From Shigella phage vB_SboM_Phaginator, in sequence record OL615012: a stretch of 64,000 nt of DNA; one strand, 5' to 3'. Of the stretch, positions 41,496 to 46,773 are shown one piece after another. Within the stretch, counting starts at the first letter, position 1; each line of letters opens with the position of its first letter. The notes under the pieces were generated by a model that was given only the letters and a program-made list of their open reading frames with translations, searched no databases and was not told where the DNA came from. A program made the translations under genes and the position numbers.

Positions 41496-41520
41496 GGGAC
41501 CGAAAGGTCCCTTTTTATTT
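41496..41520 (+). terminator. rho-independent terminator after gene 24
   Basis: Hairpin GGGACC-GAAA-GGTCCC followed by TTTTTATTT. Confidence 0.7.
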
Positions 41521-42523
41521 AACTTACCAATTCAATCCAAGCCGGACGAAGTACATCTTGTACCATTTTAACTAATTCCTTTTTAATCAAAGAAGGATTA
41601 TCCGCTTGAGTTAGAGTAATACCTTCACGAGAAGTTTCTTCCAAAATATCTTGAACAGTTAGTCCCATCACCTTTCCAAAATCTTTTGGACCAATTTCGC
41701 CAATTTTAGAAATAACGTTATTTACTCGGTTCAGTGTAACGTAGCAAGCTAAAATTCCCAGCAATTTATTATCAGCTTCTGACAGCTCAACTTTAGCTTT
41801 AATAGGCTTATCAGACTTTTTCTTTTCACTAAATTTGGAATTCTTGCATTTAATAGCTACACGATTGCGATTAGGCAGCCAAGAAGGATAACAAGGTTTC
41901 AATACATATCCTTCAGCGGTAAATACTTCGCCTTTGGCTTCGGCATTCCAAACGCATTTATTTGCATCAACTAATCCAGCATGGTCTACTGTAAAATTAT
42001 AATCTTGGACGACAGAATCTAAATCATTTGGCAATTTAATAAGCTCTTCAAATTTACCGCGGCCTAAAAGTGGAGCCATTTTAAACCCAAATGAATTACA
42101 AAACGATTCCATCATGTAATCATCAACATAAGTTACATCACCACTTTCTGTAGTAACAATAATGTCAAATACATAAAAATCTTTATCGCCATAATCAACA
42201 TTCTTCTGAATGCCAGGTCCAGCGAATTCGCCAAAAACTTGATAAGATACAACCGCTGAAGTTTCCATAATATCTTGTACTGCTTTAATGGAATCAGCGT
42301 AATTCTTCAAAATAATTTCATACCCAAAGAAATCTTCAGCAGGAAGAATAGGACCAGTGCGTTTAGCGCAAGTTACTTTATCACGCTCAATAATTAATGA
42401 GAAATTTGTGCCGTGAATCTTTTCACGAGCCACCCATTCGCCGCCAGTCAATCCTAAACTGTAAAGTTTTTCAATAAATTTAGAGTTGTAATGATTTTCA
42501 AGACTGCTATACTTTTTAAACAT
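41519..42523 (-). CDS. rnlB: RNA ligase 2 (RnlB/Rnl2)
   Basis: 334 aa; adenylation lysine motif KIHGTN; N-terminus [41 protein letters not shown] as T4 Rnl2. Confidence 0.88.
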
Positions 42524-42532
42524 AATTAATCC

Positions 42533-42811
42533 TCAGAATGTAATTTCTAACCAATCACCATCACGTTGATCACTATTGACTTTAAAATTAAATCCTTCTT
42601 TTCTCAGCCAATCACCAATTTCTTCAGTAATCAATTTATCGCGAGCAGTACAATAATAACTAAAATATGTTTTACCTTGTTCAGCTGCTTTATTAGCAAG
42701 TTCTGAAAAATCTTTAATAAAACACTCTAGCTTAAACTGTTTACTTTTAAGTGCTTTTTCGCGTAATTGATTAGCAAAAGATTCATTTTCATAAAGATCA
42801 TACTGTTCCAT
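42533..42811 (-). CDS. hypothetical protein (T4 24.2-like position)
   Basis: 92-aa ORF, ATG start, between rnlB and hoc. Confidence 0.5.
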   Translation of the reverse strand: MEQYDLYENESFANQLREKALKSKQFKLECFIKDFSELANKAAEQGKTYFSYYCTARDKLITEEIGDWLRKEGFNFKVNSDQRDGDWLEITF

Positions 42812-43013
42812 TTTTCACCTTTTTATTGATATGTCTTTTTCTATAGACAACTTTTTCTCGAGTTTCAAATTTATTCTTAGCAGTCATAGCTCGAGCCCAT
42901 AATACAGCCACTTCTTTCGCCTGTAAGTTTAATTCACGAGCAATTTCAATGAATGACTTTCCAGACTCATGAAGAGTAAACACCACAACCTCAGTTCTCA
43001 TAATCAATCTCAT
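42798..43013 (-). CDS. hypothetical small protein with helix-turn-helix-like segment (T4 24.3-like position)
   Basis: 71 aa; segment SFIEIARELNLQAKEVAVLWARA resembles an HTH; basic C-terminus. Confidence 0.45.
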   Translation of the reverse strand: MRLIMRTEVVVFTLHESGKSFIEIARELNLQAKEVAVLWARAMTAKNKFETREKVVYRKRHINKKVKNGTV

Positions 43014-43067
43014 GTTATCGAGTTGGTGCCATTATATACATCATTTTCTGAGTGTGTTTTGTGTGCT

Positions 43068-43096
43068 TTCAAAATGAAGAAAGGGGCCGAAGCCCC
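43068..43096 (-). terminator. rho-independent terminator downstream of hoc
   Basis: Hairpin GGGGCUUCGGCCCC followed by UUUCUUCAUUUU on the minus strand. Confidence 0.55.
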
Positions 43097-43102
43097 TTAC
43101 GA

Positions 43103-44521
43103 TTATGGATAGGTATAGATGATACCAGTTTCTAAAGCAGTTTTGTGAATGATGTATCCATTACGCGATTCTTGAACATCAACTTCTGGATAATCTTTCA
43201 TCATTTTCTGAAGAGTGTAACGATGCAAGTAGTATTTACTATCTGGATCTTCAGTTTTCCAATCTTTACCTTCTTCAGTCATTTTTTGTATTTCATCCAT
43301 AACCCACCAACCGCACCAGATGTAAGCTGAAGTACGATGTGGAAGAGGATGAACATAAGGTAATTCACCTTCTGGTTCCGGAGCAACTTTATCAGTCACT
43401 TGAACTTGACCTTCTGCTGTAATAGTTTTGCTATCATAATCAGTAGCAGTAACAATTGCCGTAACTTCAATAGTTTGACTTCCAATAGATGAGGTATCAA
43501 CGGTATATACATTAGTTGACCCTTCTACAGGAGAAGAATCTTTCTTCCATGAATAAGCAATTTGTGCTTCTTCTGGTGCATCAGTGACATTAGCAGTAAA
43601 TGTGGCCGAAGCATCTTGCTGAACATTAATAGAAGGAGGAGTCAATGTAACCTGTGGATTCATTGTCTTCTTATTAACTGTTAATGATACTTCATTAGAA
43701 GTAACTTCCTTTTCATTGTAATTTTCAGCAGTTACTTGAGCTACACATTTAATTCTTTTTACTCCACTTGTAGTTGGAGTATAGCTAAATGTAGAGTTAG
43801 TTTCTCCACCAACTTGTGAATCATCTACATACCACTGATACGTAGCAGATGCTCCATCAGGTTGAGAAGCTAAGGCAGCAGTAAATTGAACTGGGGTTCC
43901 AATTACTCCAGCTGAAGGACTATCGGGAGTTACTGCCAAAGTAGTTGTCTGCGTCTTTTTATTAACAGTCAGTGATACTTCATTAGAAGTAACGCTCAGT
44001 GCATCATAATTTGTCGCGGTTACTTGAGCTATGCACTTGATTTTTTTAACTCCGCTTGTGTCAGGAGTGTAATTGAATGTAGCGCTAGTCGCTTCGCTCA
44101 CAGGAGAATCGTCAACGTACCATTGATACGTAGCGTTTGCGCCCGATGGCTGCGAAGCTAAAGCGGCAGTAAATTCAACAGCTGTTCCGATTACTCCAGC
44201 GTCAGGGTTATTAGGAGTTACAGCTAAGGTAGTCGTTTGTGTCTTATTTTGAACTGTGATAGTTGTTGTCGCTTCAGCCGTTTCCGGGCCTCCTTCAGAA
44301 AGTGTATTTGTTGCAACTACTTTAATAGTCTTTTGACCGGCAGGTCCTTTTAGTACATAACTAAAAGTTGCTTCAGCTCCATCTTGTGGAACATCATCTA
44401 CAGTCCAAGCATAGGTAATAGTTCCACCTCCAGTTTCACCACTGGGTGTAGCAGTAAACTGCTGAGTCTGATCTATAACTCCAGTAGGTGTTTTAGGAGT
44501 TATATCAACTGTAAAAGCCAT
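43103..44521 (-). CDS. hoc: Hoc, highly immunogenic outer capsid protein, with an extra Ig-like domain
   Basis: 472 aa against 376 aa recalled for T4 Hoc; N-terminus MAFTVDITPKTPTGVID and C-terminal capsid-binding region conserved; extra 96-aa repeat. Confidence 0.85.
   Translation of the reverse strand: MAFTVDITPKTPTGVIDQTQQFTATPSGETGGGTITYAWTVDDVPQDGAEATFSYVLKGPAGQKTIKVVATNTLSEGGPETAEATTTITVQNKTQTTTLAVTPNNPDAGVIGTAVEFTAALASQPSGANATYQWYVDDSPVSEATSATFNYTPDTSGVKKIKCIAQVTATNYDALSVTSNEVSLTVNKKTQTTTLAVTPDSPSAGVIGTPVQFTAALASQPDGASATYQWYVDDSQVGGETNSTFSYTPTTSGVKRIKCVAQVTAENYNEKEVTSNEVSLTVNKKTMNPQVTLTPPSINVQQDASATFTANVTDAPEEAQIAYSWKKDSSPVEGSTNVYTVDTSSIGSQTIEVTAIVTATDYDSKTITAEGQVQVTDKVAPEPEGELPYVHPLPHRTSAYIWCGWWVMDEIQKMTEEGKDWKTEDPDSKYYLHRYTLQKMMKDYPEVDVQESRNGYIIHKTALETGIIYTYP
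43670..44245 (-). repeat. tandem in-frame duplication (2 x 288 bp) encoding two Ig-like domains within hoc
   Basis: Hoc residues 93-188 and 189-284 are about 80% identical, both starting KTQTTTLAVTP and ending EVSLTVNK. Confidence 0.7.
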
Positions 44522-44530
44522 AAGTTATCC

Positions 44531-45211
44531 TTATTTTAATGTTACGAAAGAAGAATTGCGTGTTTCACGAATTAAAACTGATCCGTCACGGTTAATGTAA
44601 TAAATTAAGCTAAATAAAGTTTGGTGTGCAGAAGCATGCTCAAAACTAGTTGGGTGAGATTTCCAATCAGGAGTTTCAGCAATCCATTGATAAATCCACC
44701 AAGGAACGGTACAAAATCCTGGATTTTTTCCTAATAGTTGAAGATTTGGACTAAAGTTTTCCGGAAGAGTAAATACAGACGGCTTTTCAGATTCAATAAT
44801 CTCAGCTACAGCCTGTTCGAATTTTTCTTCAACAAAAGGAGTATCTTCAATCAAAACTGAGGTATTTTCAGGAATTTTATCAGTTTCTACTACTTCAATT
44901 TTAATGTCAGATTTAACCGGAGAATCAATCAGAAGTGCTGCTTCTGGATTGACTTCTTCATCGTCATATTTTAACCCCTCTGCAGCATCAGCAGCATTGA
45001 TTAAGTCTTTAATAGATAACCCATCAGTCTCTGGCATAGGTTCACTAGCGAGCTTCTGGAGGGCTTCTTCAATATCAACAACGATATTATCAAAAGATTT
45101 ATTCTTTTTGACCTTTATACCAAACTGTTCAGCATATTCAGCTAATTTAGCTTTAGCTTCTTTGTTATCATCAAGAGCCTTCAGCTCTGCAATATAATCT
45201 TTATCTATCAT
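44531..45211 (-). CDS. inh: Inh, inhibitor of prohead protease gp21
   Basis: 226 aa, T4 Inh length and position after hoc. Confidence 0.75.
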   Translation of the reverse strand: MIDKDYIAELKALDDNKEAKAKLAEYAEQFGIKVKKNKSFDNIVVDIEEALQKLASEPMPETDGLSIKDLINAADAAEGLKYDDEEVNPEAALLIDSPVKSDIKIEVVETDKIPENTSVLIEDTPFVEEKFEQAVAEIIESEKPSVFTLPENFSPNLQLLGKNPGFCTVPWWIYQWIAETPDWKSHPTSFEHASAHQTLFSLIYYINRDGSVLIRETRNSSFVTLK

Positions 45212-45224
45212 AATATTTCCTCAG

Positions 45225-45232
45225 TATAAATA
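45225..45232 (+). promoter_or_regulatory. TATAAATA late-promoter box upstream of uvsW
   Basis: Exact TATAAATA 30 bp upstream of the uvsW ATG. Confidence 0.4.
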
Positions 45233-45261
45233 TAGATATATTTATTACATGGTATTTAGAC

Positions 45262-46773
45262 ATGACTGACATTAAAGTACATTTTTATGATTTTAGTCAC
45301 GTGAGAATTGATTGTGAAGAAAGTACATTTCATGAACTCCGTGATTTCTTTAGCTTTGAAGCTGATGGGTATCGTTTTAATCCGAAGTACAGATATGGCC
45401 ACTGGGATGGACGAATCCGTCTGTTAGATTATAATCGTCTTCTTCCATTCGGCTTAGTCGGGCAAATTAAAAAGTTCTGTGATAACTTTGGCTATAAAGC
45501 CTGGATTGACCCACAAATTAACGAAAAAGAAGAATTATCAAGAAAAGATTTTGATGAATGGCTTTCTAAATTAGAAATCTATTCAGGAAATAAAAGAATT
45601 GAACCGCACTGGTATCAAAAAGATGCAGTGTTCGAAGGATTAGTTAATCGTCGTAGAATTCTTAATCTTCCAACATCCGCTGGTAAATCGTTAATTCAAG
45701 CTTTGCTTGCGCGATATTATTTGGAAAATTATGAAGGTAAAATTCTTATCATTGTTCCAACAACTGCTCTAACAACTCAGATGGCTGATGACTTCGTTGA
45801 CTATCGTTTATTCAGTCATGCAATGATAAAGAAAATTGGTGGCGGAGCATCAAAAGATGATAAATATAAAAATGATGCACCAGTCGTTGTTGGTACATGG
45901 CAAACTGTAGTAAAACAACCAAAAGAATGGTTCTCACAGTTTGGAATGATGATGAATGATGAATGTCATCTTGCTACAGGAAAAAGTATTTCATCTATCA
46001 TATCAGGTTTAAATAACTGCATGTTTAAATTTGGTCTATCAGGTTCATTACGTGATGGCAAAGCTAATATCATGCAGTATGTTGGAATGTTTGGTGAAAT
46101 ATTTAAGCCAGTAACGACTTCTAAATTAATGGAAGATGGACAAGTAACTGAGCTAAAAATTAATAGTATTTTTCTTCGCTATCCAGATGAGTTCACTACT
46201 AAATTAAAGGGAAAAACTTACCAAGAAGAAATAAAAATTATTACTGGGCTCAGTAAAAGAAATAAATGGATCGCTAAATTAGCTATTAAGCTTGCGCAAA
46301 AAGATGAAAACGCTTTTGTCATGTTTAAACACGTATCGCACGGTAAAGCTATTTTCGATTTAATTAAAAATGAATACGATAAAGTTTATTACGTATCAGG
46401 GGAAGTTGATACCGAAACACGCAACGTAATGAAAACCTTAGCTGAAAACGGTAAAGGAATAATTATAGTAGCTAGTTATGGTGTATTTTCTACCGGTATT
46501 TCAGTTAAAAATCTGCATCACGTTGTTTTAGCACACGGTGTTAAATCTAAAATTATTGTATTGCAAACAATAGGTCGCGTATTACGTAAGCATGGTTCCA
46601 AAACAATCGCAACAGTCTGGGACCTCATAGATGATTGTGGTGTTAAGCCAAAATCTGCTAATACGAAAAAGAAATACGTTCATTTGAACTATCTTTTAAA
46701 ACACGGCATTGATCGTATTCAGCGCTACGCAGATGAAAAATTTAATTACGTAATGAAAACAGTTAATTTATAA
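45262..46773 (+). CDS. uvsW: UvsW DNA/RNA helicase (SF2)
   Basis: 503 aa; Walker A PTSAGKS, DExH box MMNDECH; T4 UvsW length. Confidence 0.9.
   Translation: MTDIKVHFYDFSHVRIDCEESTFHELRDFFSFEADGYRFNPKYRYGHWDGRIRLLDYNRLLPFGLVGQIKKFCDNFGYKAWIDPQINEKEELSRKDFDEWLSKLEIYSGNKRIEPHWYQKDAVFEGLVNRRRILNLPTSAGKSLIQALLARYYLENYEGKILIIVPTTALTTQMADDFVDYRLFSHAMIKKIGGGASKDDKYKNDAPVVVGTWQTVVKQPKEWFSQFGMMMNDECHLATGKSISSIISGLNNCMFKFGLSGSLRDGKANIMQYVGMFGEIFKPVTTSKLMEDGQVTELKINSIFLRYPDEFTTKLKGKTYQEEIKIITGLSKRNKWIAKLAIKLAQKDENAFVMFKHVSHGKAIFDLIKNEYDKVYYVSGEVDTETRNVMKTLAENGKGIIIVASYGVFSTGISVKNLHHVVLAHGVKSKIIVLQTIGRVLRKHGSKTIATVWDLIDDCGVKPKSANTKKKYVHLNYLLKHGIDRIQRYADEKFNYVMKTVNL

Follow-up and report, generated by a model that had tools for sequence, protein, structure and literature searches.

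Hoc homologues carry between 1 and 10 immunoglobulin (Ig)-like domains, and the fibre formed by the T4 protein measures 180 Angstrom (PMC10385173). Variation in domain number has been described on several occasions. A published Hoc from PhiPNJ-9 is without domain 3 and has two Ig-like domains, the Hoc-like protein of Klebsiella phage PMBT63 has an extra Ig-like domain, and that of Serratia phage Muldoon has 10. Closest to the case considered here is the hoc gene of phage RB30, whose GenBank record (AY101183) carries the annotation [quoted passage not shown] and lists five domain features besides the repeat. A search of a limited collection of papers for one on the RB30 or 472-aa Hoc duplication found none. 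We nevertheless count the long Hoc as known, because of this annotation and of general statements in the literature on variation in the number of Hoc domains.

To this background we add the hoc gene of Shigella phage vB_SboM_Phaginator (OL615012), as contained in the window, the 64,000-nucleotide stretch of DNA that was analyzed. A sequence-only reading had noted that Hoc here bears an extra Ig-like domain, produced by an in-frame tandem duplication. The observation is correct, yet the allele it describes occurs often in nature and has been annotated before. As a discovery it is modest, the additional domain being annotated for RB30 and shared by a large part of those T4-like coliphages that have been sequenced. 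Its interest lies rather in placing the three-Ig Hoc of T4 as one of several natural length variants, a point relevant to users of Hoc for display and to work on mucus adherence.

The hoc locus and its tandem module

The open reading frame at 43103..44521 on the minus strand encodes 472 aa plus a stop codon, and ORF call, phmmer and synteny identify it as the highly immunogenic outer capsid protein Hoc in its long RB30/RB27-type allele. We are highly confident that the gene belongs to an RB27-like Tequatrovirus and is hoc in a 472-aa allelic form that is old, widespread and already annotated in RB30. The window is ~97% identical to RB27, vB_Eco_T-01 and other Tequatrovirus genomes over 24 kb. 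At hoc itself, RB30 (AY101183, AAM52483.1) and RB27 (KM607000, AIT74544.1) likewise encode 472 aa and have the same 2 x 288-nt repeat, domain order and genomic position, with 94.5-94.7% nucleotide identity to the window (94.5% for RB30); the RB27 protein differs at 20 of 472 aa.

The surroundings are conventional. Genes run in the order uvsW / inh (hoc.1) / hoc / 24.3 / 24.2 / rnlB, with ORFs spanning 41519-46773 and order and spacing as in RB27 and T4. On the 5' side of hoc is inh (44531-45211, minus strand), followed by the ORF of uvsW (45262-46773, plus strand), and downstream of hoc is a 71-aa homologue of gene 24.3 (42798-43013, minus strand), whose equivalent in PhiZZ23 bears a DUF2774 domain annotation. 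A consensus scan found a terminator-like, GC-rich hairpin and T-run at 43081..43098 on the minus strand, reading AAGGGGCTTCGGCCCCTT and then TCTTCATTTT; this strong hairpin stands 5 nt past the hoc stop codon, before the 24.3 homologue. A small plus-strand ORF inside hoc (43145-43330) was judged spurious.

Comparison with T4 locates the additional sequence. T4 Hoc (PDB 5vf3_Z, 376 aa) was the phmmer match of the window protein in the PDB, with E=9e-223 and in two pieces that pair query residues 1-106 with T4 1-106 and query residues 189-472 with T4 93-376. The 96-aa gap in T4 Hoc relative to the window Hoc corresponds to one extra Ig-like module in the window. The flanking genes are alike in the two phages, but T4 Hoc has a single domain-2 module and three Ig-like domains where the window Hoc has four. 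The length excess of about 96 aa in the sequence-only reading is thus borne out, the ORF being present and T4 Hoc being 376 aa in the PDB alignment rather than itself about 470 aa.

Tandem Repeats Finder detected a single array, 43665-44245, in which a period of 288 recurs in 2.0 copies with 74% matches (score 640), and a second repeat search placed the copies at 43665-43952 and 43953-44240, again with 74% identity. These searches agree with the 2 x 288 bp direct repeat first described at 43670-44245, which maps exactly to residues 93-284; residues 93-188 are encoded by 43958-44245 and residues 189-284 by 43670-43957. Both 96-aa copies open with KTQTTTLAVTP and close with EVSLTVNK. Positions and shared ends therefore stand as they were claimed, and only the claimed identity of roughly 80% needs lowering, as the copies match at 74 of 96 aa (77%) and at 212 of 288 nt (73.6%). 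Such a match is far beyond chance, the best of 20,000 shuffles reaching 106/288, and the remaining pairs of Ig-like domains within the window Hoc share only 26-41% identity.

All five parts of the protein, encoded on the minus strand, can be set against T4. Ig-like domain 1 (D1; aa 1-92, 44246..44521) differs from T4 D1 at 7 of 92 residues and is predicted by AlphaFold2 (AF2) to be a beta-sandwich (pLDDT ~90). The first copy of the domain-2 module, which we term the alpha type (aa 93-188, 43958..44245; AF2 pLDDT 88-95), differs from T4 D2 at 18 of 96 aa and is without a close counterpart in T4. The second copy, of beta type (aa 189-284, 43670..43957), with a Pfam PKD match at 195-267, differs at 8 of 96 aa and corresponds to domain 2 of T4. 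Ig-like domain 3 (D3; aa 285-376, 43394..43669), also a beta-sandwich by AF2 and matched by Pfam Ig_3/I-set at 289-373, corresponds to T4 189-280 with 13 of 92 differences. The capsid-binding domain at the C-terminus (aa 377-472, 43106..43393; T4 281-376), with limits taken from PMC10385173, shows 3 differences from T4 in 96 residues and is nearly invariant among 30 homologues. The N- and C-terminal domains, earlier called unchanged, are accordingly conserved but not identical to those of T4.

Structure prediction gives the same picture. Pfam matches to the window Hoc are to PKD, Ig_2, Ig_3 and I-set, and AF2, run on a 30-sequence alignment, predicts four beta-sandwich domains with pLDDT ~90 across residues 1-376. 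Alignment to T4, repeat mapping and AF2 together support the view that the extra Ig-like domain is an in-frame tandem copy of domain 2. AF2 confidence was low for the C-terminal domain, which may reflect its resolution only when bound to gp23 on the capsid. The best Foldseek matches in the PDB are strings of four Ig domains (Dscam, Sidekick, ICAM-5 D1-D4), and RB49 Hoc (3shs) was also matched. The 22 aa differences between the two copies did not cluster in the loops of the AF2 model, 11 falling in strands and 11 outside them (Fisher p=0.47).

Two module lineages and their age

Nei-Gojobori comparison of the two window copies gives dS=1.47, dN=0.157 and omega=0.11. Across five long alleles the paralogous modules are separated by a dS of 1.1-1.5, whereas D1, D3 and the C-terminal segment, compared as orthologs between nine phages, do not exceed 0.46. 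Because of this difference and the low omega, both module copies are old and under purifying selection. Divergence of this order also bears on the quality of the sequence, as tandem repeats are prone to misassembly and the duplication might be a repeat expansion introduced in assembling the window. Copies that differ at 76 of 288 nt (26%) would allow reads to be placed uniquely, however, and the frame is intact under the omega just given. Moreover, the two-module architecture, with position-specific orthologous modules, recurs in RB30 (a single-gene record), RB27, mobillu, CHD94UKE2 and hundreds of independent assemblies. The deep divergence of the copies and the number of these assemblies rule out an artefact, to which we attach practically no probability.

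Modules at the same position are related across phages. The alpha lineage consists of module 1 of the window, RB27, RB30, mobillu, CHD94UKE2 (CHD94) and UGKSEcP1 (UGKS1), at 85-94% nucleotide identity; the beta lineage consists of module 2 of these phages together with the single modules of T4 and PhiZZ23, at 88-98%. Module 1 of the window is 88-94% identical to module 1 of the other five (94% for RB27 and RB30, 88% for UGKSEcP1), compared with 74-77% to their second modules. Module 2 of the window is 88-98% identical to their second modules, reaching 98% for CHD94UKE2, and is 91% identical to the T4 module and 97% to the single module of PhiZZ23. Orthology is thus position specific, with module 1 alpha and module 2 beta, in a nucleotide-level comparison that covers ten alleles.

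This pattern makes it very improbable that a recent, lineage-specific duplication in situ created a novel Hoc in the window phage. What speaks for such an event is that the repeat preserves both register and reading frame perfectly and that its modules share identical ends. Against it are the paralog dS of 1.47, set beside no more than 0.46 in the orthologous parts of hoc, the closeness of each module to its positional ortholog in RB27/RB30 or CHD94UKE2, and the long allele already annotated in RB30. The reading we favor remains that of an old and widespread allele, of which the window gene is one mosaic: its D1 and module 2 are nearest CHD94UKE2, and its module 1 is nearest RB27. Its best match being 95.6% in nucleotides and 94% in protein, the window gene has a mosaic sequence that is new, though of a kind ordinary for the hoc locus.

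Mosaicism extends to single-copy alleles. When typed at the 76 sites that differ between the window copies, the single module of RB32 starts out alpha-like, stays so for two thirds of its length, and ends beta-like. In T4 the module follows module 1 of RB30 over its first 14 informative sites (~56 nt) and from there on is beta except for an alpha-like patch at nt 213-251; the single module of PhiZZ23 is beta throughout. Among 120 protein clusters the modules are heavily mosaic, and alpha and beta can be told apart cleanly at only four positions (48, 51, 52, 55), too few to indicate the direction of change. The patch formed by residues 48-55 is of alpha type in ~36 and of beta type in ~29 of the 78 single-copy clusters.

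Copy number across hoc alleles

The long form is common. Megablast of the window hoc against 50,697 phage records gave 662 matching records, and the top matches are full-length, single-piece alignments of 1419 nt at 93-96% identity; the genes of RB30, RB27, CHD94UKE2 and others are 94.5-95.6% identical to it. We sampled 60 of the 662 records at even spacing, and 24 of these carry the long allele with both modules (22 as a single full-length piece of ~1419 nt), a proportion of ~40% with a wide confidence interval; the 1131-nt span of the T4 type was found in ~29. By protein length, the best 120 clusters include 78 of 376 aa, 29 of 472 aa and 8 of 568/570 aa. Alleles of 282, 376, 472 and 568 aa were all found, and the three longer forms carry one, two and three domain-2 modules, whereas the 282-aa form is a fusion of D2 and D3.

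The three-module proteins of 568-570 aa (UGKSEcP1/2, YUEEL01, EC101, ESh16) have the 96-aa module of the window in tandem and, beyond the window's two, a third module, for five Ig-like domains in total. Their module 1 is alpha-like, their module 2 beta-like, and their module 3 is of a third, more mosaic type. These alleles are rarer, with a full-length 568-aa match in 14 of the 14 records listed and 17 records in the bands of at least 90% identity. UGKSEcP1 corresponds to OV877085, with the three-module allele at 301-2007 of the excerpt, and one three-module record bears the name "T4_ev151" (LR597660).

Change in the opposite direction is seen in the 282-aa Hoc of AV111 (OR352941, Mosigvirus; 601-1449 of the excerpt), a member of the same Hoc family that keeps the C-terminal domain. 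Here D2 and D3 are fused in register at their common VTATDYD motif, leaving two Ig-like domains and a protein that resembles the PhiPNJ-9 variant. As judged from its sequence, the AV111 fusion is a case of non-identical Ig modules recombining unequally. Unequal homologous recombination that keeps modules in register would account for both gain and loss, and hoc alleles form a recombining pool whose members differ in the number of Ig-like domains.

How the long allele came about can be pictured in more than one way. It could derive from diverged single-copy hoc genes, one of alpha and one of beta type, that recombined unequally with an offset of one module during mixed infection. Single-copy alleles with an alpha-type and with a beta-type central patch both occur, in the numbers given above, PhiZZ23 supplies a pure beta module very close to module 2 of the window, and T4 x RB30 crosses with SegE have documented gene conversion adjoining hoc in mixed infection. 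However, no pure alpha single-copy module was present among the nucleotide sequences examined, RB32 being alpha only in part, and an old duplication with later collapses fits the data equally well. We regard an origin by such an offset exchange as possible, though unlikely.

The order of events may also have been the reverse, the two-module allele being ancestral and the 376-aa Hoc of the T4 type a secondary collapse through unequal crossover between alpha and beta modules. A deletion product of this kind must start as alpha and end as beta; RB32 is exactly so, and T4 opens with the informative sites of RB30 module 1 before turning to beta. The fusion in AV111 demonstrates that a collapse mechanism is active. 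On the other hand, the alpha-like patch within the T4 module requires more than one exchange, pure beta single modules such as that of PhiZZ23 occur, and the nucleotide-level basis is the ten alleles. The proposal of an ancestral two-module allele is accordingly a tentative one, about which we are more doubtful than persuaded.

Homing may have contributed to the movement of hoc alleles. T4 has the homing endonuclease gene segE between inh and uvsW, whereas the corresponding 50-nt spacer of the window (45212-45261) contains no segE, and 110 nt around this spacer are 100% identical to RB27. In RB30 and RB52, which are without segE, SegE is reported to cut the inh-uvsW region, and its homing to co-convert flanking DNA (PMC2330249). 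SegE homing is thus a plausible route for hoc exchange in mixed infections with T4.

A more inclusive model would hold that Hoc of Tequatrovirus and Mosigvirus has a standing polymorphism in domain-2 copy number, from one to three modules plus the D2/D3 fusion and hence from two to five Ig-like domains. Unequal recombination between alpha and beta modules would keep this polymorphism, the 376-aa protein of T4 would be a product of collapse, module number would tune reach and avidity for mucin glycans, and homing of the SegE type would help to shuffle alleles. Taken in all its parts this model is speculative, and we think it improbable that every part is right. The old alpha and beta modules, the mosaic single-copy alleles and the 282-, 376-, 472- and 568-aa forms could nonetheless support a modest evolutionary study.

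Fibre length, mucin binding and related Hoc proteins

The capsid-binding domain of the window Hoc is near-identical to that of T4, and on these grounds we infer binding to gp23 hexamers, with one Hoc copy probably at the center of each hexamer in the mature capsid; like other Hoc proteins of T4-like phages it would be dispensable for growth. By homology to T4, the C-terminal domain would dock at the hexamer center, and four Ig-like domains would project a fibre longer than that of T4 by one Ig domain, or ~40 Angstrom. The role of the extra module would be that of a spacer, of a further unit for glycan binding, or of both.

Residues reported to bind mucin are present in the parts concerned. E29 and G33 are the reported MUC2-binding residues of PhiPNJ-6 Hoc, and the SLT motif at the end of D2 is a reported MUC2-binding site of PhiPNJ-9 Hoc. 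The window Hoc carries E29 and G33 in D1, and its duplicated module carries SLT, so that the motif occurs twice, at 183-185 and 279-281. A mucus-adherence (BAM) adhesin function, in which Ig-like domains would bind mucin glycans (MUC2 fucose), is putative for the window Hoc, where the check covered the conservation of these motifs.

Among Hoc proteins with more domains than that of T4, those of PMBT63 and Muldoon are the more remote comparison. They belong to phages of other genera, their sequences are far removed, and the domains they have in addition do not correspond to the domain-2 module of Tequatrovirus. Their plan is nevertheless that of the window Hoc, in which a string of Ig-like domains is carried on a conserved capsid-binding domain.
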